Shown here piece after piece: positions 2,165-62,556 of a stretch of DNA of 64,000 nt. The stretch's first letter is position 1. Each line of letters starts with the position of its first letter. The translations under genes and the position numbers were made by a program. Source of the stretch: Octopus vulgaris (taxonomy: Eukaryota). Below the pieces are notes generated by a model. The model ran no database searches, had not been told where the DNA came from, and saw only the letters and a list, made by a program, of their open reading frames with translations. The stretch spans positions 71,424,001 to 71,488,000 of the forward strand of contig OX597831.1 in assembly GCA_951406725.2 (NCBI GenBank). The letters are read 5' to 3'.

Positions 2165-2508
2165 GCACCACCTTTAGTCAAGCAAATCGACCCCGGGACT
2201 TATTCTTTGTAAGCCCAGTACTTATTCTGTCAGTCTCTTTTGCCGAACCGCTAAGTGACAGAGACATAAACACACCAGCATCGGTTGTCAAGCAATACTA
2301 GGGGGACAAACACAGACACACAAACACACACACACACATATATATATACATACATACGACAGGCTTCTTTCAGTTTCCGTCTACCAAATCCACTCACAAG
2401 GCATTGGTCGGCCCTGGGCTATAGCAGAAGACACTTGCCCAAGATGCCACGCAGTGGGACTGAACCCGGAACCATGTGGTTAGTTAGCAAGCTACTTACC
2501 ACACAGCC
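2165..2508 (-). mobile_element. SINE family A, truncated
   Basis: Reverse complement of the family A body and head. Confidence 0.85.
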
Positions 2509-3960
2509 GGGGAAGAAGCTTTCCAAACTTTGCCAGGCTATTCTTATTCTAGTGGTAACACTCTCTGAGCATCCACCCCCACTACTAACTTGGTTACCTA
2601 GGTAGTGGAATCTATCAACTACTCCTTGTTTCTCCCCCTGGAGTGTGGTGGAATCTGTTTTCTGAGTATCTGTGGTATCTATAGCCCCTGTGCATCTGCT
2701 GCACACGAAAGCTATCTTCTCGGTTAATTTTCCTTTGATGTTGCTGCACCTCTTGTGTCCATAGCTTACACTGAGTACATCTTATGGAGTTTCTACATAC
2801 ACCTTTTCTACAGATTGAGCAGGGCCACCTACCAGAGTGGGTGTGTGATGAGTTCACCTTCTTACTTACTAGAACTTTGGTCTTTGCTACATTGACTCTA
2901 ATGCTTTTTGATTCTAAACCTAGCTTCCACACCCAAAATTTCTTTTCTAGTTCCAGTAGTGATTCCGCTATGAGGGCCAGGTCATCAGCATAGAGGAGCT
3001 CCCAAGGGCAACCCATCTTGAATTCCACTGTTATTGCCTGGAGGACTATGATGAATAAAAGGGAACTGAGGGCTGAACTTTGGTGGACCCCTACTTCTAC
3101 CTGGAATTCTTCATTATACTCATTGCCAATCCTAACCTTACTAACGGCCTCTCTGTGTAGGGCCTGTACAGCCCTTATTAACCATTCATCAATCTCCAGT
3201 TTCTGCATCGCCCACCAGATAAGGGAACAGGGACCAAGCCACTTTCTTTTCAGAATCATTAAAAGCAAGTGCACCATCATCTATGCGGACACATTTCTCT
3301 CCTGTAACATCACAATTTTCTCTCACACACTGTTTTGCAATCCAAAATACCTCAGTTCTTTGGTCCTCACGTCACTAGACATTGGTAAACTTCTTTTCCG
3401 CTTCGCTCTTGGCTATGTATACCTGCCGCCCCACCCTTCCAGGCTTTCCAGGCCTGTTTCTTTGCTCTAATTGCTTTGTCTACTGTACAATTCCACCACC
3501 ACATAACTCTAGGTCTGGAAGGGACTTTGCACCATCCGCAGACTTAGTCTGTGGCACTCAGTAAGCTCTCCCATAGAAATTTCCAGTTACCTTCTATGTC
3601 TGACGTCTGTAGCTCCTCCTCCCTCTCCTCATATTTCTTGATGAGGATGTCCCTAAATCTCTGACCATGTGAAGGGTTCTTTAGCTTCCAAATCCTTCTT
3701 TTTTGGATCGGTCTACTTCTTGGTATCCTTCTGGCCTCGAGCCTAAAGTCACTAATGACTAGCCTATGCTGGGGGGTACATTCTTCACCCGGGAGGGTCT
3801 TTGCATTTAACAGCAACCCTGCGTCCCACTGTTTGGTGAGGATGAAATCAAACTAGCTAGCAGAGTCCCCTGATTAATAGGTTATGAGGTGGTTGTCTGG
3901 CTTCCTGAAGTTAGTATTGCAGATTAAAAGGTTACATGCATCACAGAACTCCAGTAGCCT
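2509..3960 (-). mobile_element. Decayed RTE-clade LINE fragment (APE endonuclease end plus RT, with internal deletions and frameshifts)
   Basis: ORF pieces LLYADDLALIAES and GEECTPQHRLVISDF; closely similar to the LINE at 14.3-16.2 kb. Confidence 0.9.
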
Positions 3961-13896: not shown

Positions 13897-16190
13897 TCAT
13901 CATCATCATCGTTTAACGTCCGTTTTCCGCGCTAGCACGGGTTGGACGGTTTCGACCGGGGTCTGGGGAGCCAGGGGCTGCCCCAGGCTCCAGTCTGGTC
14001 TGGCAGTATTTCTACAGCTGGATGCCCTTCCTAACGCCAACCACTCCGCGAGTGTAGTGGGTGCTTTTTACGTGCCACCTGCACAGGTGCCAGAGGGGTC
14101 TGGCATCGGCCACGGTCGGTTGGTGCTTTTTATGTGCCACCTGCACAGAAGCCAGTCGGGGCGGTGCTGGCATCGGCCACATTCGGATGGTGCTTTTTAT
14201 GTGGGAGGGGGCAGAAATATAGGGGAGCACCAGTGGGGGGAGGGGGGTGTTCGGAGTGTTCATGTACTTGACTCAACAGGTCTCCTCAAGCACAGCGGGA
14301 CGATCTGGGATCCGGGGTACTTTGAATGGGCAGGGGCTATGCGGAACTGATGCAGGAAGCAACCCGGGTCTTTGCAGTCACAGCATATCTCCAGAGATCT
14401 CGGTCCTTCGCCATTGCCTCGGTGAGGCCCAACGCTCTGAGGTCAAGCTTGACTGCCTCATCCCATGTCTTCCTGGGTCTACCTCTCCCCCTGATACCTT
14501 CAACAGATTGGGAGTGGCACTTCTTCACACATCTCTCCTCATCCATCCGCAGCACATGACCATACCATCGCAAGCGTCGCTCCTGCACACCACATCTGAT
14601 GCTTCTTATATCCAGCATTTCTCTCAGGATGCTTACACTCTGTCGTGTGTGCACACTGACATTACACATCCAGCGGATCATGCTAGCTTCATTTCTTTCA
14701 AGTCTACGCATGTCCTCTGCAGTCATAGCCCATGTTTCATTACCATGAAGCATGGCAGTTCGCACACATGCATCATACAGTCTACCTTTCGCTCTGAGGG
14801 AGAGACCCTTTTTTGCCAGTAGGGGTAGGAGCTTTCTGAACTTTGCCCAGGCTATTCGTATTCTAGTGGTGATACTCTCTGTGCATCCACCTCCGCTACT
14901 AACTTGGTCACCCAGGTAGCGGAAACTATCAACTACTTCTAGTTTCTCTCCCTGGAGTGTGATGGAATCTGCTTTCTGAGTGTCTGTGGTGTCTATTGTC
15001 CCTGTGCATCTGCCGCACATGAAAGCTATCTTATCTGTTAATTTCCCTTTAATGTTGCTGCACCTCTTGTGCGTCCATAGCTTACATTGGGTGCATCTTA
15101 TGGAGTTTCTACCTGCACCTTTCCTACAGATTGAGCAGGGCCACCTACCCGAGGGGGTGTGTGCTGAGTACGCCTTGCTGCTTACTATTACTTTGGTCTT
15201 TGCTACATTTACTCTAAGGCCCTTTGATTCTAACCCTTGCTTCCACACCCGAAATTTCTTTTCTAGTTCCGGTAGTGATTCTGCTATGAGAGCCAGGTCA
15301 TCAGCATAGAGGAGCTCCCAGGGGCATCCTGTTTTGAATTCCTCTGTTATTGCCTGGAGGACTATGATGAATAGAAGGGGACTGAGGGCTGAGCCCTGGT
15401 GCACACCTACTTCTACCCGGAATTCTTCACTATATTCATTGCCAATCCTAACCTTGCTGGCAGCCTCTCTGTATAGAGCCTGTACAGCCCTTATTAGCCA
15501 TTCGTCAATCTCCAGTTTCCGCATCGACCACCAGATAAGGGAACGGGGAACCCTGTCAAAGGCTTTCTCCAAGTCCACAAAGGCTATGTAGAGGGGTTTA
15601 TCTTTAGCTAGGTACTTCTCCTGCAGTTGTCGGACCAGGAATATAGCATCAGTGGTGCTCCTACCTGGCACAAAACCGAACTGCATTTCATCTAAGCAAA
15701 TTCTCTCCCTAATGAGATGGGTTATGACCCTCTCTGTGACCTTCATCACCTGGTCCAACAGTTTGATACCCCTGTAATTATTTCTATCTAGAGCATCACC
15801 CTTACCCTTGTAGCAGTTGACTATGGTGCTGCTACGCCAGTCATTGGGTATGACTCCATTGTGAACTACCTGGTTTACAATGCGGGTGACTATGCCATAG
15901 CCCACATAGCCAGCTGTTTTAAGCATCTCAGCAGTGATTCCTGATGGGCCGGGGGCTTTGCCTGGTTTCATATCCTTAATTGCCTTATCTACAAGGGAGC
16001 TGTCTATTCGGGTAGCTGGTCCCTCTACTGGGTCAACATTTGGCAGGCTCTCCTCCTCCCATTCATTCTCCTCGTTCAGCAGTCTTTCGTAATGGCTTCT
16101 CCAAGCCTCTTTCTTTTCACTAACAGTAAAAGCAAGTGCCCCATCATCCATGCGGACACATTTCTCTCCTGTAACATCACTATTTTCTCT
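13897..16190 (-). mobile_element. Young 5'-truncated RTE-clade LINE with 3'UTR and (GAT)n tail
   Basis: Uninterrupted RT reading frame, 3'UTR shared with many solo tails in the window, (CAT)n on the + strand at 13897. Confidence 0.93.
14337..16190 (-). CDS. RTE-clade reverse transcriptase (endonuclease domain missing) with an embedded PHD-like C4HC3 finger
   Basis: Motifs NYRGIKLL, QFGF, FVDLEKAFDRV, GVHQGSALSPLLF, LLYADD, FRYLG, RRLRWYGHV, RGRPRKTW. The first ~34 codons of the called 651-aa ORF come from flanking repeats. Confidence 0.9.
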   Translation of the reverse strand, partial: RENSDVTGEKCVRMDDGALAFTVSEKKEAWRSHYERLLNEENEWEEESLPNVDPVEGPATRIDSSLVDKAIKDMKPGKAPGPSGITAEMLKTAGYVGYGIVTRIVNQVVHNGVIPNDWRSSTIVNCYKGKGDALDRNNYRGIKLLDQVMKVTERVITHLIRERICLDEMQFGFVPGRSTTDAIFLVRQLQEKYLAKDKPLYIAFVDLEKAFDRVPRSLIWWSMRKLEIDEWLIRAVQALYREAASKVRIGNEYSEEFRVEVGVHQGSALSPLLFIIVLQAITEEFKTGCPWELLYADDLALIAESLPELEKKFRVWKQGLESKGLRVNVAKTKVIVSSKAYSAHTPSGRWPCSICRKGAGRNSIRCTQCKLWTHKRCSNIKGKLTDKIAFMCGRCTGTIDTTDTQKADSITLQGEKLEVVDSFRYLGDQVSSGGGCTESITTRIRIAWAKFRKLLPLLAKKGLSLRAKGRLYDACVRTAMLHGNETWAMTAEDMRRLERNEASMIRWMCNVSVHTRQSVSILREMLDIRSIRCGVQERRLRWYGHVLRMDEERCVKKCHSQSVEGIRGRGRPRKTWDEAVKLDLRALGLTEAMAKDRDLWRYAVTAKTRVASCISSA

Positions 16191-16210
16191 GATTAATAAT
16201 AATAATAATA

Positions 16211-16650
16211 TGCTCAATACCACAGATTTGCTTGTCAGTTGTTTGACCGTAACCAGTTGAGCATGTCCCTTAGTGGCTGACGATATTTGCATCTCTGATC
16301 ATGAGCAGAAGTAGTGGGGGAGCATCATAGCCATATGTTGAGAGGGATTCTTTGGGATTTGAATAATTCACCTCTGGAAACATGGGTGTTTCATTCAACA
16401 TCCTTAAACAATCCCAATTCAAGGACCTTTTGAGCGAGATAGGTTACTCGACCAGAAGAAAATTCTAACTGGGCCTCACCTGCAAGGTCATGTACTGTTT
16501 ATCTTGATATGAGATCACCATGTCGTGCACATATGGTTGTGATGCATGTGCCTGGTGTACCCTTATCAGACGGGTAGTCATGATGGCTATACTGGACTTT
16601 GTATATTTTACCCCAGTGTCACTTTGATGGCATGCACTGCTTTCTCACTC
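16211..16650 (+). mobile_element. 5'-truncated copy of the (TAA)n-associated repeat
   Basis: Matches 6620-7060 and is flanked by (AAT)n. Confidence 0.7.
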
Positions 16651-25167: not shown

Positions 25168-27348
25168 GGCGGCGAGCTGGCAGAAACGTTAGCATGCTGG
25201 GCGAAATGCTTAGCGGTATTTCGTCTGCGTTACGTTGTGAGTTCAAATTCCGGCGAGGTCGACTTTGCCTTTCATCCTTTTGGGTTCGATAAATTAAGTA
25301 CCAGTTACGCACTGGGGTCGATGTAATCGACTTAATACCTATGTCTGTCCTTGTTTGTCCCCTCTGTGTTTAGCCCCGTGTGGGTAATAAAGAAAGGTTA
25401 ATATAGGGCGTTACGATTATCAGAAAATCAAAAATAAAATGTGTGTAATAGGTGTAAAACAACTTCCTATGAACGAATATGAAAAAAAAAATTCGCGCAC
25501 GCGAAAGGGGGTGGGGAGAGGCCTCGGAAAATTCACATCGGGAAGTTCCGAAAGCGTCTGAGGAGCTGACCCGGGCACCAAAACAAAAAAAAAATAGTGT
25601 AATATGTGTAAAACAACTTGCTCTAAACGAATATGACAAAAAAAATGCGCTCTCGCGAAAGAGGGGTGGGGGAGAGGCCTCGGAAAATTTATATCGGGAA
25701 TTTCCGAAAGCGTCTGAACCGGGCACAAAAACAAAAACAAAAACAGCGTAATAGGTGTAAAACAACTTGCTCTAAACGACTATCATGAAAAAAATGCGCG
25801 CTCGCGAAAGGGGGTGGGGGAGAGGCTTCGGAAATTTCACATCTTCAGTCCACGGCCTTTAAACTAAGAAAAATAGTGTAATTGGTGTAAAACTACTTGT
25901 TCTAAACGAGTATCAAGAACACACACTCACACATGAATCATAAACTCCGTATTTTTGTACATATTTCGCAAAAAAAAAAAATAAATAAAGAGAAGAAATT
26001 CTGGAAAAAGTGAAAAAATGTTGGATCTCGTTCCTTGGTTAAAGCTATTTTAAACATTAAATTTATGCTTTTCTTTGAAATAGTTCAGATATATGCAATT
26101 CTTCTCACTTATTAAGATGCATTTATCAGAAAAAAGAGACAGAAAAAATTATTATTTTGTGTCAATCCTTCCCTAATTATCCTTTATTAATTAGTTTTGG
26201 CATGTATTTTTTTCCCAAATTTATTTTTTCACCTTTACAACACTGTTTAGTAAAGCAATTAATTATCTTTATAATTTGCATATTTGACTTATTAATCAAA
26301 ATTCTCTAGATGTAATATATACTAAGTAATGCATCCTTCATTTATGTGTTCCGTTCTGTATTATGCATGCGTGACTGTTTGTATGTAAGTGTGTTTAACT
26401 GTGCACATGAATGTGAATATTAAAGACCATATTTATTTACTATGATTGTTATTTTCAGAACAAATAAATCTTTTGGCTGTTATGTTATTGATGTTATTAT
26501 TATTGCTAGTTAAAGGGTGGTGACTTGGCTGAATATTTTGAGTCTTGTAGTATGTAGTTGTATTAGTCAATATTCTGAGTTCAAATCCAACTCATTTCTT
26601 TATCATCATTATCGATGGACCACTCAAAGAGGTATGTATACATTATCATTTTCGTAACATAATTTCTGTAGTATTTCAAGATGTTTCTGACACGTATTTT
26701 GATTCACATGGCGGAGATCCAACATTTCTTCACTTTTTCCAGAATTTCTTCTCTTTATTTTTTTTTTTTTTTTGCGAAATATGATTTTATGATTCATTTG
26801 TGAGTGTGTGTTCTTGATACTCGTTTAGAATAAGTAGTTTTACACCAATTACACTATTTTTTCTTAGTTTAAAGGCCGTAGACTGAAGATGTGAAATTTC
26901 CGAAGCCTCTCCCCCACCCCCTTTCGCGAGCGCGCATTTTTTTCATGATAGTCGTTTAGAGCAAGTTGTTTTACACCTATTACGCTGTTTTTGTTTTTGT
27001 TTTTGTGCCCGGTTCAGACGCTTTCGGAAATTCCCGATATAAATTTTCCGAGGCCTCTCCCCCACCCCTCTTTCGCGAGAGCGCATTTTTTTTGTCATAT
27101 TCGTTTAGAGCAAGTTGTTTTACACATATTACACTATTTTTTTTTTGTTTTGGTGCCCAGGTCAGCTCCTCAGACGCTTTCGGAACTTCCCGATGTGAAT
27201 TTTCCGAGGCTTCTCCCCCACCCCCTTTTCGCGTGCGCGAATTTTTTTTTTCATATTCGTTCATAGGAAGTTGTTTTACACCTATTACACACATTTTTTT
27301 TTTGATTTTCTGATAATCGTAACGCCCTATATTAACCTAAAGAAATAG
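25168..27348 (+). mobile_element. SINE family B split near its 3' end by a long-TIR transposon
   Basis: SINE body 25168-25395 resumes at 27338; flanking duplication ggtatataaagatgag. Confidence 0.8.
25396..27337. mobile_element. Non-autonomous long-TIR DNA transposon (Merlin- or MULE/Foldback-like)
   Basis: TIRs of ~630 bp (25396-26029 / 26714-27337) starting GGTTAATATAGGGCG, built of ~150-bp subrepeats; 8-bp TSD taaagaaa; non-coding AT-rich spacer. Confidence 0.88.
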
Positions 27349-33479: not shown

Positions 33480-33521
<42 letters not shown>

Positions 33522-33525
<4 letters not shown>

Positions 33526-34075
33526 ATCAAAATAAAAACATGATGCGAAGGATTCAGCGGTACATATGTTTCGGGCCTTTATTAGACAGATTTATAACAA
33601 TGCATAATGTATGTCTGTGGCCTTCTTCAGCGCACAACAGCTTCCACAAGGACATGTGTTACATTAAAATTCTGGTTGGGGATGCAAATCCTCTCATTCG
33701 TGTACGACATAATGCGGCAACAGCATAGAATTGAAGCGTCCATCTCTTTCTTTTCTCAATTGAGAGAAGAAAGAGATGGACGCTTCAATTCTATGCTGCT
33801 GCCGCATTATGTCGTACTTGAATGGGAGGATTTGCATCCCCAACCAAGAATTTTTGATGTAACACATGTCCTTGTGGAAGCTGTTGTGCGCGGCTGAAGA
33901 AGGCCACAGACATACATTATGCATTGTTATAAATCTGTCTAATAAAGGCTCGAAACATATGTACCGCTGAATCCTTCGCATCATGTTTTTATTTTGATCA
34001 ATTTACTCCACCACCTACACCACCAAACGGTATACACAGGTGCTTATAATTATCAAGTACTCACCCTGAATTTCT
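33522..34075. mobile_element. Spacer-less ~480-bp palindrome plus tail; non-autonomous Penelope-like element with a hammerhead in each arm
   Basis: Arms 33522-33759 / 33760-34002, unique tail to ~34075, (TA)n on both sides. Confidence 0.82.
33890..33967 (+). ncRNA. Type I hammerhead ribozyme (CUGAAGA core, palindromic stem III)
   Basis: gcgg-CTGAAGA-aggcc...ggctc-GAAA-CATATG-TA^ccgc; predicted cleavage after 33963; mirror copy on the - strand at 33557-33633. Confidence 0.75.
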
Positions 34076-34347
34076 ATATATATATATAAATATATATATA
34101 TTTGTAAGCATATATATACATGTTAAATATATATATACATTTTTTTTATTTACATATATTTTACACACACACATATACATATATGTTTTATGTATATATA
34201 TATACATACAGAGATGTACTTGCATAGCAAGTAATTTGATCTGAGATCGTGTGCTGAAACGAAAACAATTGCAGCGTGGAAGGTGTTTATAAGCCATTTA
34301 AGAAACACACAAAAGCCGTTCGATTCACTTCAACATTTAAGTTTAAA

Positions 34348-34395
34348 TTGTCAAAATATTTTCGTCGCTAAAATCCGCGACCTGTTCACTGACAA
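34348..34395 (-). ncRNA. Type I hammerhead variant with a G3-C8 swap (GUGAACA core)
   Basis: ttgtca-GTGAACA-g-gtcgc-ggatttta-gcgac-GAAA-ATAT-TT^tgacaa; perfect 6-bp stem I, 5-bp stem II, palindromic AATATT stem III. Confidence 0.7.
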
Positions 34396-34487
34396 AGTCC
34401 GTGCTGCATATATACATACATATATTTTATGTATATATGTGCATATACATATATACACACATACACATATATATGTATACATACATG

Positions 34488-34524
<37 letters not shown>

Positions 34525-34525
<1 letters not shown>

Positions 34526-34762
34526 TTTATTTAAAGCAACAGAAAATTCAACAAAACCTGTTATTCTGAGTTTCACGTTGCCGTTCATCGGACAGTTTTT
34601 GCTAGTTCCATTCTAGCAAAAACTGTCCGATGAACGGGAACGTGAAACTCAGAGTAACAGGTTTTGTTGAATTTTCTGCTGCTTTAAATAAAGCATATTA
34701 CTCTACCACTGGTATTTGAGTACTCTTTTTTCCACCTTGTTTCACATTTATGTGTTTACTCC

Positions 34763-34764
<2 letters not shown>
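34525..34764. mobile_element. Fold-back non-autonomous Penelope-like element with hammerhead
   Basis: Arms 34525-34605 / 34613-34693, 7-nt spacer, tail to 34764, inside (TA)n. Confidence 0.82.
34623..34660 (+). ncRNA. Minimal type I hammerhead variant (CCGAUGA core, U4C)
   Basis: ctgt-CCGATGA-acg-ggaa-cgt-GAAA-ctc-a-gag-TA^acag. The mirror copy at 34558-34595 has loop II GCAA; both loops are GNRA. Confidence 0.75.
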
Positions 34765-34824
<60 letters not shown>

Positions 34825-34973
34825 TCATATAATTTAGAGAAAAACCTCTATTAAGCAATTCAATAATGAAAGATGTTATTCACACCATATAGAAAACATA
34901 TACTATAAAAACCTTAATCTAAAAATCAATAAAGTACAATGAATAGTAAATAGTAGTAAAAATACTACACGTG

Positions 34974-35017
<44 letters not shown>

Positions 35018-35642
35018 GAATGTATGTATATAGATATATGTATTGAAAGGGCTTGTAATATTACTAGTTGCCATAACCAGATGAGGACTCAAGATGCATA
35101 AACAAGTCTAAGACAAAAGGGTTATATAATGCTATTGTTTCATGATAAACTGCAGTATGTTTTGATCTAGGAATCACATCTATCAAATGGATTGAGCAAG
35201 AGAATATATATTCATGGAATGCATCTATGGAAAAATTTTGAGGAGAAAAATCCGATGCAAAAAAAACAAGGATGTAAGAGTTGAAGAATTCATTAACAGA
35301 GTTTCTGTTTCTAGGCTTCAGTTCAGATGTAATTTGTTTGCAAATACCTATGTGCATGTTTATAGGAAGAAGGTAGCGATAGCAGCAAAGAGAGAAAGAG
35401 AGAGAGAGAGAGGGGGGAGTAGTGGTGATTGAGAAGTAGAAAAGGACACGAGACAACTGAAAAAAATGTATTAAAGGTAGAGAGAGAGGGAGGTGGGGGG
35501 AATTTCAGGAAGAGGAGAAGAAAGTTTCTTCTGTAAAGATTTTCATTCCATAGATTTTCGTTCAGGCAGATTTTATTTGAAAGAAATGCATGATAAGATG
35601 AAAAGGTATTGAGAAGTAAAGAGAAAGAGAGAGAGAGCCTGT

Positions 35643-35734
<92 letters not shown>

Positions 35735-35960
35735 TATTCATTTATTTTATGAGAATAAGATGTATAATGAAAGAAAAAAGCAAAGAAATCAATGAGTGAC
35801 AAAAATGAATGAGATTAAGTACATCGTATGGAAAAGTTAATACATGTGAAGCTCAAGGTGGGAATAAGTCAGATTAGGAAAAAGTCATTGACTTAATGAA
35901 TATATTGTAAAAATATATTGTATTGTAAAAAATGTAGTATAAATGTATGCAACAAAAATA

Positions 35961-36006
<46 letters not shown>

Positions 36007-36231
36007 GAAATATTAAAATAACTAAGTCTCTCTAAAAGAGAACAGCGGCAGCGTTCCCGGAAAATAATAGTTATCGCCATACTAATATGGCATTCTTATA
36101 AAAATAAGAAAAAAGCTGTCCGCTTATTAGCTCCATGAGGCCATCGCCTTAAGTTAGCTATTTGATACACAAACTGTATCCATATAACCTTCGAACAAGG
36201 GAGGTCAGTCGCTCCACACTATTGACCGGCA

Positions 36232-36273
36232 GCTACAGACGCGTTTCAGGGTATTGCCCCTTTTCAATGCAGC
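36232..36273 (-). ncRNA. Type I hammerhead, U3-A8 variant (unit 1)
   Basis: gctgca-TTGAAAA-gggg-caata-ccct-GAAA-CGCG-TC^tgtagc on the minus strand. Confidence 0.78.
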
Positions 36274-36593
36274 GTAGCCAGCCAGTAGGTGTCGCTTCCG
36301 ACAATCTCTGTTCGATGGTTTTATTTACCTAGTTTCGGTGGAATACATCCACTTGTTTTCAATAATAGAAATATTAAAATAACTAAGTCTCTCTAAAAGA
36401 GAACAGCGGCAGCGTTCCCGGAAAATAATAGTTATCGCCATACTAATATGGCATTCTTATAAAAATAAGAAAAAAGCTGTCCGCTTATTAGCTCCATGAG
36501 GCCATCGCCTTAAGTTAGCTATTTGATACACAAACTGTATCCATATAACCTTCGAACAAGGGAGGTCAGTCGCTCCACACTACTTGACCGGCA

Positions 36594-36635
36594 GCTACAG
36601 ACGCGTTTCAGGGTATTGCCCCTTTTCAATGCAGC
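36594..36635 (-). ncRNA. Type I hammerhead, U3-A8 variant (unit 2)
   Basis: Identical to unit 1. Confidence 0.78.
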
Positions 36636-36955
36636 GTAGCCAGCCAGTAGGTGTCGCTTCCGACAATCTCTGTTCGATGGTTTTATTTACCTAGTTTCGG
36701 TGGAATACATCCACTTGTTTTCAATAATAGAAATATTAAAATAACTAAGTCTCTCTAAAAGAGAACAGCGGCAGCGTTCCCGGAAAATAATAGTTATCGC
36801 CATACTAATATGGCATTCTTATAAAAATAAGAAAAAAGCTGTCCGCTTATTAGCTCCATGAGGCCATCGCCTTAAGTTAGCTATTTGATACACAAACTGT
36901 ATCCATATAACCTTCGAACAAGGGAGGTCAGTCGCTCCACACTACTTGACCGGCA

Positions 36956-36997
36956 GCTACAGACGCGTTTCAGGGTATTGCCCCTTTTCAATGCAGC
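36956..36997 (-). ncRNA. Type I hammerhead, U3-A8 variant (unit 3)
   Basis: Identical to unit 1. Confidence 0.78.
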
Positions 36998-37340
36998 GTA
37001 GCCAGCCAGTAGGTGTCGCTTCCGACAATCTCTGTTCGATGGTTTTATTTACCTAGTTTCGGTGGAATACATCCACTTGTTTTCAATAATAGAAATATTA
37101 AAATAACTAAGTCTCTCTAAAAGAGAACAGCGGCAGCGTTCCGGAAAATAATAGTTATCGCCATACTAATATGGCATTCTTATAAAAATAAGAAAAATAA
37201 GCTGTCCGCTTATTAGCTCCATGAGACTTAGTTATTTTAATATTTCTATTATTGAAAACAAGTGGATGTATTCCACCGAAACTAGGTAAATAAAACCATC
37301 GAACAGAGATTGTCGGAAGCGACACCTACTGGCTGGCTAC

Positions 37341-37382
37341 GCTGCATTGAAAAGGGGCAATACCCTGAAACGCGTCTGTAGC
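37341..37382 (+). ncRNA. Type I hammerhead, U3-A8 variant (inverted unit, host-sense strand)
   Basis: gctgcaTTGAAAAggggcaataccctGAAAcgcgTCtgtagc; predicted GUC cleavage after 37376. Confidence 0.78.
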
Positions 37383-37589
37383 TGCCGGTCAAGTAGTGTG
37401 GAGCGACTGACCTCCCTTGTTCGAAGGTTATATGGATACAGTTTGTGTATCAAATAGCTAACTTAAGGCGATGGCCTCATGGAGCTAATAAGCGGACAGC
37501 TTTTTTCTTATTTTTATAAGAATGCCATATTAGTATGGCGATAACTATTATTTATATATATATACACACACATATATGCATATATATAT

Positions 37590-40930: not shown

Positions 40931-41662
40931 TGATGTTAAAAATCATTTGGTGATGTATATTGTGTGTTACTAGAAATGGTATTGTGTTTGGTTGATGGGT
41001 TTGCTTTCTCGTGTTGCCCTAAGTTGTTCTATAGGTATCCCATTTGCTCATTGTATGCTGTTTTCTATAAGTAAGAGAGGGCAATTGTGCTTGAACAGAA
41101 ATCTTTTGAGTTCTATAAGTCATGTGTTTCTGGTATTTGGATCATTTACTATGGTACAAATTTTCCTGGCTAGACAATACGGGATGACTCGTTTTGTGTG
41201 TGTTGGATGGCATGATTTGTAATTTAGATACTGGTGTGTGTCTGTGCTTTTGTAATAAATATCAGTTGTGATTGTGGTGTTGTTTTTAATTACCATTATG
41301 TCAAGAGATGGTAATTATGTGTTGCTCAATTCACTTGTAAATTTGAGACTAGGGTGTAGAGTGTTGAGAAGGGTGCTGAATTCTTCCAGATTTTCTAGGG
41401 GTTTGGCCCAAATTAGGAAACAATCATCGGGGTATCTTTTCCATGTGTCCTCTGTCTTTTAAAGGTCATGCTGTGGTTCTCTTCAATTTTGTTTTATAGG
41501 TTTTGTTGAAAAGGAATGTTTTGCTTATGAAGATGATTACCACCAAATGTATGAAAGTGCTAATTGGACTTTATGAACATTACAAAATATTTTTTTAATG
41601 TTAAAATACCATAATAAAAAAAAAACGTGAAAACCTGACCATGTTTTAATCGTATTCAACTG

Positions 41663-51601: not shown

Positions 51602-52848
51602 AGGGTTTTATCATTAAAGATTTCCCCTGACCCACTTTCAGTTATTGCAGGAAATAGAACTTGTACAAGTACAATCATACATCTCTCTACATGTCACATT
51701 TTAAATTGCAGCTTTCCACTAGTATTCATTTGCCTTTTACGGCTGCTGAAGTGGACTGAAGTGTTATAATGGAGGCAGTTGAATGCAGATCAGGGATCAG
51801 GTTCTTATACTTAAAAAGGTCATACACCAAAAAGGACTTTCGATGAGATGAAAGAAGTTTATGGTGATGACATACCATCATATAACATAGTTAAGCACTG
51901 GTATCACCAATTCAAATGTGGTCAGACATTGGTAGAAACTGCTCCTGTTCCTGATGATGAAAGCATCCATAGAGTGGAAGCTACCATGTTGGAGAAATGC
52001 TGCATAACTATCAGACAAGTAGTGCAAGAATTGATGATAAGTGTAGGGTCCATGGAAAAAAAAAATCATTCACAACGATTTGCACATGCGGAAGTGTCTG
52101 CACGACGGATTCCCCAGATGCTCACACCTTTTCAGAAGCAGGAACGAGTCAATTGCTCCCAGGCTCTTTTGGCAATGTGCCAAGAAAACATGAAGGACTT
52201 TTTCGGCAGACTTATCACACAGGAGGAAACATGGGTCCATCACTATGATCCTGAGACTAAAGTTTAGTCAAAACAATAACTCACCACTTCCAAAGAAGGC
52301 TTGTGTCCAATTCTCAGCAGGCAAGATGATGCTCACAGTCTTTTGGGACCAGCTCAGAGTAGTGATGATGGATTTTCTGGCAAAAGGCACCACAATTAAT
52401 GGGGCATATTATGCTTCTCTGCTGCCATCAAAGCAGAGAGGCGTGGCATGCTGAACCAAAAGAGTTTGCATCCTTCAAGTCAATGCTCCAGTTCACAATG
52501 TGCATGTTGCTCAGCTGAAAGCACACTCCTGCGCTATGAAATCCTTCCTCATCCCCCTTACTCTCCCAGCCCCGTACCATCTGATTTCCACCTCTTTCCA
52601 ACCATGAAGTCTTTTTTGAAGGGGAAGCACTTTGCAGATGATGATGAACTTATTTCCCTGGTAAAGTCTTGGCTCCAGACACAACCTACCGACTTCTACA
52701 GATGAGATCTTCACAGCTGCATAAAGTGATGGGAGAAGTGTGTTACAATTGCTGGTGGTTATGTAGAGAAGGACTAATAATTATGCCAAGATTCATTTAT
52801 TCCAGTCCTTCAGAAGTGGGTCAGAGGAAATCTTTAATGAACACACCT
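51602..52848 (+). mobile_element. Older mariner (DD34D) element with a disrupted transposase
   Basis: Degenerate TIRs tcattaaagatttcccctgacccactt / aagtgggtcagaggaaatctttaatga; motifs ITQEETWVHHYDPETK and HPPYSPSPVPSDFHLF. Confidence 0.88.
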
Positions 52849-57967: not shown

Positions 57968-58085
57968 CATTACAGCCATATCACTTTGAAAACACCAGTT
58001 CTCATCTGATCACCAAAGTTAACAATGTCGAGCCCAGTTAGTACTTAGATGGGTGACCTCTTGGAAAACTTAGGTGCTGTTAACA
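57968..58085 (+). pseudogene. 5S rRNA pseudogene fused to a SINE family A 3' tail
   Basis: tacagccatatcactttgaaaacaccagttctcatctgatcacc...ttagtacttagatgggtgacc...ggtgctgt follows the metazoan 5S sequence over its full length, with many CpG-type substitutions. Confidence 0.85.
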
Positions 58086-59274: not shown

Positions 59275-59498
59275 CACTCTCTAAGATGTTACTAATTGAT
59301 TTGAGAACTTTACATTATTGGAAAACCTATAGGAAATTAGCTGAAGATTACTTGACATATTATATTTGCTGTAATATTTGGAGCTTTAATAAATTGTTAT
59401 AGTATGAAACAATTGTACTAAATTACCGATCCATTCTTGTTGCTTATTTTTTGGTTATATATATATATATAATTATATATATTCTGCTTCTACTTCAG

Positions 59499-60719: not shown

Positions 60720-62556
60720 TGCCTCAATGTAATACCAGGTACTGGCTCTCATGGCTTCTGATCTTAACTAATTGGAAGTGTTATCTTATACGAGGGACGT
60801 TCAATAAGTAATGCTTCTGACCCACTTGCAGTTGTTTGATCTAGCTGAAATTTTGCATGTGCAATTATTTATATCTCTATAGATTAAGTGGCAAATTACA
60901 GCTCTGAACTAATTGTGGTTTCTGATTTACAGAGTCAAGTGTGAAATGGAGCCAGTTGAGTGTCGAGCAGTGATCCGGTTTTTGTATTTGAAAGGACGCA
61001 CACCACGGGAGACTTTTGATGAAATAAAAGTAACTTATGGTGATGATGCCCCATCATATGACCTTGCAAAACCATGGCATCGTGAATTTAAACATGGTCA
61101 GAACTCTGTGGAAACAGCTCCCAGATCTGGTCGCCCCCTTCTGCCATTGATGAGGCATCTGTCCATCAAGTTGAGGCTGCCATTTTGGAAGATCGATGCA
61201 TAACTATTCGCCAAATAGCCCATGAGATCAAGATTAGTACCGGGTCTGTGGAAACTATCATTCATGACCATTTGCATATGCAAAAGGTGTCTGCCAGATG
61301 GATTCCCAGGCTGCTCACACCTTTCCAGAAGCAAGAACGCGTCGAGTGCTCGAGGATGAATTTGGAGATGTGCCAAGAAGATGAGTCAAAATTTTTCAGA
61401 AGACTGATTACACAGGATGAAACCTGGGTCCATCACTATGATCCAGAGACCAAAGCCCAGTCAATGCAGTGGAAACACCGTGACTCACCTCCTCCAAAGA
61501 AGGCAAAGGTGCAGCCCTCCGCTGGCAAGGTCATGCTCACAGTCTTCTGGGACCAGGATGGAGTAGTGATGACAGATTTCCTGGCAAAGGGTACCACAAT
61601 TACAGGAGTCTATTATGCTTCACTTTTGAAGAAATTAAGAGAAGCTATCAAAATCAAGAGGCGGGGCAAGATCAGCAAAGGCATCCTCCTCCTGCAGGAC
61701 AATGCTCCGGTCCACACCTCGCTTGTCGCCAGATCAGAAGCACAGGCGTGCGGCTATGAACTCCTCCCCCAGCCCCCTACGCTCCTGACCTTGCACCCTC
61801 TGATTTTGACCTCTTCCCAGCCATGAAGTTGTTTTTGAAAGGAAAGCGTTTCCCATATGATGCAGCCTTGATTTCTGAAGTCATGTCGCGGTTGGAGGAC
61901 CAAACTGGGGTCTTCTACAAAAACGGTCTCCAGAGCTGTATCAAACGATGGGAGAAATGCGTAACTCTGGGTGGTTCCTATGTAAAAAAAAAACTAATAA
62001 CTGTGCCAAGTTTCGTTGCTCTACTGCTATGGGAAGTGGGTTAGGGGCATTACTTATTGAACGCCCCTCGTACATACATGTTTTGTCTTGCTATCAAAGA
62101 TGGACTACAGTAAATATTCTGCTCGATACCATAGATTTGTTTGTCAGTTGCTTCACCTTAATCAGTTGAGCATGTCCCTTAGCGGCTAATGACATGTGCA
62201 TCTCTGATCATGAGCAGAAGTAGTTGGGGAGCATCGTAGCCATGTGTTGAGAGGGATTCTTTGGGGTTTGAATAATTCACCTCTGGAAACGTTTGTATTT
62301 CATTCAACATCCTTAAACAAACCTTACTCAGGGACCTTTTGAGTGAGATGAGCAACTCAACCTGAAGAAAATTCTGAGCCCTACCTGCAAGGTCATGCGC
62401 TGTTTACTTTAATATGAGATCACCATGTCACACACATATGGTTGTAATGCATGTGCCTAATGTACCCTTATCAGACAGTTAGTCATGATGGGTATACTGG
62501 GTTTCATATATTTGTACCCCAGTGTCACTTTGGTGGCATGCATTGCTCTCTTACTC

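Follow-up and report, generated by a model that had tools for sequence, protein, structure and literature searches.

The hammerhead ribozymes described from Penelope-like elements (PLEs) in PMC4209133 have a type I layout with a palindromic stem III and occur in thousands of mostly solo copies, as well as in close pairs on opposite strands; their processing as dimers is modeled there and in a review (PMC6765202). A preference of PLEs for insertion at (TA)n has been published (PMC8557442), and the same source lists a Hydra family from Octopus bimaculoides. Animal retrozymes without long terminal repeats (non-LTR retrozymes; PMC7229834; bioRxiv 10.64898/2026.07.22.740005), for which a PLE origin has been proposed, are non-coding tandem repeats whose units measure 170-400 nt, have less than 45% G+C and each contain a type I hammerhead, and whose circular fold is highly self-paired. 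Among core variants, natural covariation of the 3-8 pair to U3-A8 and the U4C change of viroids are described (PMC3088659), and G3-C8 has been reported as an engineered variant (PMC3884650, PMC8495972, PMC11167929). Here we describe four hammerhead motifs (HH1 to HH4) that share the general layout and copy habit of the PLE ribozymes and lie within 3.5 kb of Octopus vulgaris contig OX597831.1. The 64,000-nucleotide stretch analyzed (positions 71,424,001 to 71,488,000; hereafter the window, to which all positions refer) is animal DNA with many microsatellites and mobile elements; NCBI assigns to Octopus vulgaris a protein 54% identical to that of one of these elements. The four motifs probably represent hammerhead folds, three at the 3' ends of as many PLE families and one in a non-coding 362-bp tandem repeat, all set in TA microsatellite, which would cut as dimers in their source elements, with the G3-C8 core of HH2 predicted to be weakly active.

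The window was scanned with a strict descriptor of the type I hammerhead in which positions 3, 4, 7 and 8 were left free, the chance level being taken from dinucleotide shuffles. Six matches, covering HH2, HH3 and four copies of HH4, were obtained (0.225 per 64 kb in 40 shuffles); HH1 was missed because of its 51-nt stem II, which has an A.C mismatch at the base. A descriptor that allows this mismatch gave eight matches (0.2 in 30 shuffles), namely all four motifs and a fifth at 59341. The places of the four cores, the GAAA, the palindromic stem III and stem I are as stated in the original prediction, an earlier reading of the sequence alone, and its view that the motifs are family-level rather than chance features agrees with these counts and with the membership of each motif in a dispersed repeat family. 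Its statement that each motif has stems I and II holds in that both are present in all four, with the reservation that stem II is weak in HH3 (2-3 bp) and has an A.C at its base in HH1. All four agree with the PLE-type I definition (core N3-U4-G5-A6-N7-N8-A9 with a 3-8 pair, G12-A13-A14, A15.1-U16.1 and H17), and palindromic stem III and a stem I of 4-6 bp are present in 4/4. Departures from the canonical core are C4 in HH3, the swapped 3-8 pair in HH2 and the covaried 3-8 pair in HH4. The strict CUGANGA consensus is matched by HH1 alone, so that a search with it misses three of the four, as had been claimed.

All four motifs lie within (TA)n, which makes up 7.8% of the cluster vs 2.8% of random DNA. 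The HH1, HH2 and HH3 elements are represented here by truncated 3' ends, and 5'-truncated copies with an inverted partial copy are found for HH1, HH3 and HH4 in the window and for HH2 at two other loci (L300 and L305; other genomic and metagenomic loci are likewise cited by L numbers). Around other copies the four families seldom occur together (5/117 loci, four of these representing one place); the cluster in the window is therefore an unusual pile-up. The fifth hammerhead-like motif (59329-59430, plus strand, C3 at 59341) has the core CUGAAGA, a long stem II region, the palindrome ACAAUUGU and A17, in a layout that resembles motifs at L083 and L233.

HH2 (34348..34395, minus strand, G3 at 34389) has the core GUGAACA with the G3-C8 swap, an extra G, a 5-bp stem II with G10.1-C11.1, GAA, the palindrome AAUAUU, U17 and a 6-bp stem I. 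It is part of a PLE 3' end (34207..34408, minus strand) that lies between microsatellites and is 96-98% identical to the 3' end of the element at L300. At all of the 30 best loci, HH2 follows a PLE open reading frame (ORF) on the same strand at a distance of about 1.0 kb, and GTGAACA is present in each. The ORF encodes a reverse transcriptase with a Pfam GIY-YIG domain at the C-terminus and is open for 1,025 codons at L300, where the frame shows a CX3CxxC linker and the CCHH residues (a Cys pair between GIY and YIG, with two His farther on); by the CX2-5CxxC linker and CCHH criteria of PMC8557442, these sequence marks assign the element to the Neptune or Nematis type. The family is young, since 25 genomic matches to the element protein share the best score, all of them 100% identical across 227 residues, and a frame of 1,025 codons is open. 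In the 2.8 Gb assembly the HH2 pattern has 5,940 exact matches, 5,742 with G3 and 198 without; reversed-pattern controls gave 0, here as in the searches for the HH3 and HH4 patterns given below. Among the first 100 of the 5,940 matches, C8 is present in 93 and G8 in 5. A C3-G8 sister subfamily was not seen among the 100 listed of the 198 non-G3 matches. G3-C8 is retained in older subfamilies with ORFs about 80% identical while loop II changes (L309, L311, L317, L319), and G3.G8 was found in one copy beside a 70%-identical ORF (L306). The HH2 element is also covered by assembled contigs of four sequencing runs, which carry no RNA-end information.

Related elements were found at 26 metagenome loci, many of which lack the 3' end. 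C3-G8 is present in 4/4 of these relatives in which a motif is clearly recognizable immediately 3' of the ORF (L369, L372, L374, L381), and by eye in L370; L373 possibly has U3-A8. No G3-C8 was found at these 26 loci, and the HH2 pattern itself has 0 matches in metagenome contigs. The branching of HH2, L369, L370, L371 and P0001 is not resolved in the protein tree, which contains no named PLE references. As the motifs of the relatives are C3-G8, the G3-C8 state was likely derived within the HH2 lineage, whose nearest relative is left unresolved by the tree. The L370 motif, found about 115-160 bases downstream of the ORF match, shows by eye U15.1-A16.1 replacing A-U. Further G3-C8 families were sought among motifs with the stem III ACGU, the one shape covered, which gave 20 matches vs 39 in the control; full stems I and II were present in 1/20 (L331), and one match appeared to be an HH2 relative (L328), so that no second large G3-C8 family of that shape is present. 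The lone copy at L331:~1500 (plus strand), with intact stems, lies in a C3-G8 family (stem II GAGC/GCUC, stem III ACGU) and is an independent double change, seen once.

HH1 (33890..33967, plus strand, C3 at 33894) has the core CUGAAGA with C3-G8, a 51-nt stem II region opening with A.C, GAA, the palindrome ACAUAUGU, A17 and a 4-bp stem I. The A.C is a family state (GGCC...GGCCC in 33/41 copies). HH1 belongs to a 5'-truncated inverted pair of 3' ends (33519..34005; arms meeting at 33759/33760, (TA)n on the left), to which the ORF-bearing element at L124 is 94-98% identical in its 3' end and in its inverted 5' copy. The second, inverted copy (33555..33633, minus strand, core 33630-33624) has a stem I short of two bases. 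A first look genome-wide gave at least 1,132 HH1 candidates. In the element, HH1 lies on the same strand about 1.6-1.9 kb 3' of an 842-codon frame with reverse transcriptase (RT) and C-terminal GIY-YIG, and an inverted copy is present at the 5' end. The frame at L302 shows DKT, a CxCX5C linker, CxxC and CxH around E and N residues, and a GIY-YIG core without CCHH; its N-terminal motif is RWA vs RWK of the Hydra clade. A Naiad identity was ruled out by the C-terminal position of the endonuclease. First-look searches with the endonucleases of the HH1 and HH2 elements gave 19,435 and 8,578 genome candidates, respectively, which suggests a very large PLE load.

HH3 (34619..34665, plus strand, C3 at 34627) has the core CCGAUGA (C3-G8 with U4C), a stem III of ACUC-A-GAGU, GAA and A17. 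The loop closing its stem II is of the GNRA type, and members of the family differ at position 11.1. The motif is part of an inverted pair of 3' ends (34520..34765, (TA)n on both sides) with 93-96% identity to both ends of the ORF-bearing element at L368; the partner (C3 at 34591, minus strand) has, like that of HH1, a broken stem I or stem III. Genome-wide the HH3 pattern has 8,090 exact matches, with C4 in about 43 of the first 100 (counted by eye). At L368, HH3 follows a decayed RT/GIY-YIG frame on the same strand by about 1.1 kb and an inverted 5' copy is present; this element is 5'-truncated, with CxxC and CxH visible and a decayed linker. An ORF fragment near HH3 at L122 was discarded as a link to the element, as it sits 3' of the ribozyme. 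By the protein motif marks of PMC8557442, the HH1 and HH3 elements are both of the Hydra-clade type. The original prediction had called the carriers of the motifs unrelated; three of them are PLE 3' ends, two from a single clade.

HH4 (37341..37382, plus strand, U3 at 37347) has the core UUGAAAA with U3-A8, a 4-bp stem II, GAA, the palindrome ACGCGU, C17 and a 6-bp stem I. It lies in an inverted 331-nt copy (37223..37553, plus strand) of the unit of a 362-bp tandem array (36001..37225, minus strand); the arms are 100% complementary, and the copy ends in (TA)n. The array comprises 3.4 units with 99% matches, and each full unit has its own hammerhead (U3 at 36267, 36629 and 36991). An ORF of 120 codons was not found in the array, the unit has 41% G+C, and the circular monomer is predicted to fold at -121 kcal/mol (z -6.8 vs shuffles). 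These properties agree with the marks of non-LTR retrozymes given above, and the array appears retrozyme-like and fits the animal kind. Hydra-type remnants near arrays of the HH4 lineage (L126, L129, L342) were considered as a partner, and a link was not established. Genome-wide, the patterns of the lineage have 3,542 matches (3,384 with U3 and 158 without).

The sizes of the HH2, HH3 and HH4 lineages bear out the large repertoire claimed in the original prediction. To obtain an unselected sample, 98 regions of 10 kb (980 kb) were chosen blind to content, one further region beside the window being excluded. The count of 3-8 states with relaxed positions that had been proposed as a check was run on this sample: the strict descriptor gave 28 matches vs 3.2 by chance (10 shuffles), with C-G 18, U-A 4, G-C 3, C.A 2 and A.A 1. 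Watson-Crick pairs thus account for 25/28 matches vs 1.2/3.2 in the shuffles, in line with the claim that C-G, G-C and U-A all occur at 3-8. Seven of the 18 C-G matches come from one array, and the matches fall in 20 bins and 19/98 regions. Extrapolation to the genome gives, roughly, some tens of thousands of motifs. Across all the DNA analyzed, beyond this sample, loose matches formed 30 clusters, of which 16 occur at two or more loci; of these, 13 are paired at 3-8 and one is mixed.

If the four motifs are PLE-type hammerheads as proposed above, tandem or read-through transcripts of master elements would contain two copies that fold into a double hammerhead via the palindromic stem III; the dimer would cut after H17 to give unit-length or circular RNA, and the PLE protein would insert copies at (TA)n by target-primed reverse transcription, often truncated and inverted. 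Such insertion would explain the presence of four families within 3.5 kb. Selection would act on few master elements rather than on the truncated window copies and would favor 3-8 pairing loosely, so that U.G and C.A states, still able to spread, may serve as intermediates in transitions. The double hammerhead is the predicted minimum-energy fold of the HH4 dimer, cleavage by a PLE ribozyme depended on protein (PMC11167929), and the engineered C3G/G8C exchange partly restored cleavage, including that of a PLE ribozyme (PMC11167929, PMC8495972). The swapped HH2 likely still cuts, at an activity predicted to be weak.

Several observations weigh against this reading. The minimum-energy folds of the HH1, HH2 and HH3 dimers are not double hammerheads, published minimal PLE ribozymes cleave poorly (PMC4209133), and ribozyme mutants had no effect on insertion in vitro in one PLE (PMC11167929). 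Compensatory change was not seen in 12 predicted stem pairs across 9 HH2 copies, an autonomous partner for HH4 was not found, and two of the 16 recurrent clusters are mismatched at 3-8 (A.A and C.U). The HH4 lineage also carries mismatches in numbers: by eye, the first 100 of its 3,384 U3 matches comprise 79 U3-A8 and 21 U3.G8, and the first 100 of its 158 non-U3 matches comprise 40 C-G and 42 C.A, 18 of the latter being one identical sequence. This sequence has C3.A8 at all of the seven loci examined, several of them tandem or inverted arrays. A3-U8 appears in a single non-U3 row, a copy without stem I; no family of this kind was seen, no dedicated search having been made. In a tree of 37 units, built with positions 3 and 8 masked and one copy without stem I dropped, the C.A subfamily joins the C-G family of L141 (bootstrap 79), both join a U-A copy (bootstrap 100), and U.G and U-A copies are interleaved near this group. 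The related 360-bp lineage (L340-L346, L141, L360-L367) includes multiplied C3-G8, C3.A8, U3-A8 and U3.G8 subfamilies, with stem III palindromes varying among ACCGGU, ACUAUAGU, ACUAGU and ACUGCAGU. Counts and tree together lead to the conclusion that mismatched 3-8 states have multiplied in the HH4 lineage; they may have kept partial activity, may be cleaved within a mixed dimer by a sister RNA, or may not need cleavage. The original prediction that the 3-8 combinations imply selection on the active fold was accordingly too strong, given these multiplied mismatches and the insertion in vitro without cleavage.

The same facts favor an alternative that we consider unlikely while giving it appreciable weight, namely that cleavage of these PLE hammerheads is dispensable or rescued in trans, that the 3-8 pair drifts, that the G3-C8 family and the wobble or mismatched subfamilies spread with or without cutting, and that the fold persists chiefly for its role as a structural signal. 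The single-sequence C3.A8 subfamily in tandem and inverted arrays, the share of U3.G8 and the in vitro result all speak for it, as do the Anolis reads of PMC11167929, none of which ends at the cut site, and the Naiad elements, which thrive without canonical ribozymes (PMC8557442). A double transversion that lands on a Watson-Crick pair and is then fixed across ORFs about 80% identical is, however, hard to obtain by drift; G3.G8 and C3.C8 are seen only as scattered copies of HH2, as the counts of G8 and C3-G8 above indicate, and the recurrent clusters are mostly paired at 3-8. A relaxed pattern applied to AT-rich DNA with inverted repeats might also yield look-alikes by chance, as could be argued from the 3-6 chance matches per Mb that relaxed descriptors yield, from the weak stem II of HH3 and stem II base of HH1, and from the Rfam scan of the window (E<=10), in which the hammerhead family is absent, and none of the four motifs is included, among the 150 listed of 157 matches. 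This reading, extremely improbable from the shuffles of the window already, is refuted by the fixed place 3' of PLE ORFs, by thousands of exact copies vs 0 in reversed-pattern controls, and by near identity to published PLE ribozymes. A wider interpretation of the PLE-type hammerheads is offered tentatively and is more doubtful than the reading it extends: the genome would preserve a natural record of the evolution of a catalytic tertiary pair, with a young PLE family of about 5,700 copies driven by a working G3-C8 hammerhead derived from C3-G8, and with one retrozyme-like lineage in which C-G, C.A, U-A and U.G have all multiplied. On this view, the mismatched intermediates would owe their spread to a sister RNA that is still active, shares their stems I and III and cleaves them within a mixed dimer.

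Among other features of the window, a 5S rRNA-like sequence (57968-58085, plus strand, 79.7 bits) has several pairs broken and is likely a pseudogene or 5S-derived repeat; sequence resembling a short interspersed nuclear element comes after it. Two inverted arrays with a 149-156-bp unit (25424-25843 and 26888-27309) lie about 1 kb apart, and the descriptor scan of the window found no hammerhead in them. Reverse-transcriptase frames of a long interspersed nuclear element, which we take to be RTE-like, are present on the minus strand at 14337-16298 (653 codons open) and 2419-3280, and there are presumably Mariner-like transposase fragments at 61092-61826 (minus strand) and 51815-52267 (plus strand). 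Another PLE RT remnant (41102-41455, minus strand) has 39% identity to the ORF at L121:4514-5902.

In the laboratory, the active fold of the hammerhead was classically proven by the G3-C8 swap; if the reading is true, a natural family in which this swap became fixed and which went on spreading would indicate that the swap works in the cell. The near-identical paired and mismatched cores of the HH4 lineage make testable both the need of PLEs and retrozymes for cleavage and the way in which compensatory changes cross mismatched intermediates. Among the motifs counted, about 9,000 with U3 or G3 escape descriptors based on CUGANGA, as do the U4C copies. The repertoire is nevertheless not overlooked as a class, contrary to the original prediction, because PLE hammerheads, palindromic stem III, U3-A8 and U4C have been published and the motifs are of a known kind. 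Natural G3-C8 alone was not found in the literature searched, in which coverage of subscription papers, including those on PLE variants, is thin.

Compared with the PLE hammerheads of PMC4209133, HH2 shares the extra base between 9 and 10.1 and the G10.1-C11.1 pair, and HH4 shares the natural U3-A8 pair (about 1,300 matches in S. mansoni) and has a core, UUGAAAA, identical to that of family 4 in Fig. S3. The representative motifs of that figure (56 by its legend) include no G3-C8 or C4, one U3.G8 (S. kowalevskii 1) and no cephalopod. The elements of HH1 and HH3 resemble the Hydra-clade elements of PMC8557442 in the C-terminal GIY-YIG, DKT, CxCX5C, the lack of CCHH, CxxC and CxH, and the (TA)n targets. 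HH3 is close to the ribozymes of Hydra-2_aMil and Penelope-3_HM in File S2 of that paper, with which it shares a stem III of ACUC-N-GAGU; every core given in that file is CUGANGA, whereas about half of the HH3 family has U4C. HH1 differs from the Hydra ribozymes given there in its 51-nt stem II opening with A.C and in a 3' untranslated region of 1.6-1.9 kb. The HH4 array, otherwise like the non-LTR retrozymes in PMC7229834 and bioRxiv 10.64898/2026.07.22.740005, differs from those described in its U3-A8 pair, its PLE-like inverted terminal copy and a lineage with C-G, C.A, U-A and U.G, and is known here from DNA alone. A single lineage with multiplied paired and mismatched 3-8 states looks new. 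In PMC11167929, G3-C8 is a laboratory double mutant, whereas the HH2 family, with about 5,700 copies, has it fixed; judged from the sequences compared, a young high-copy G3-C8 family with C3-G8 outgroups is apparently new.

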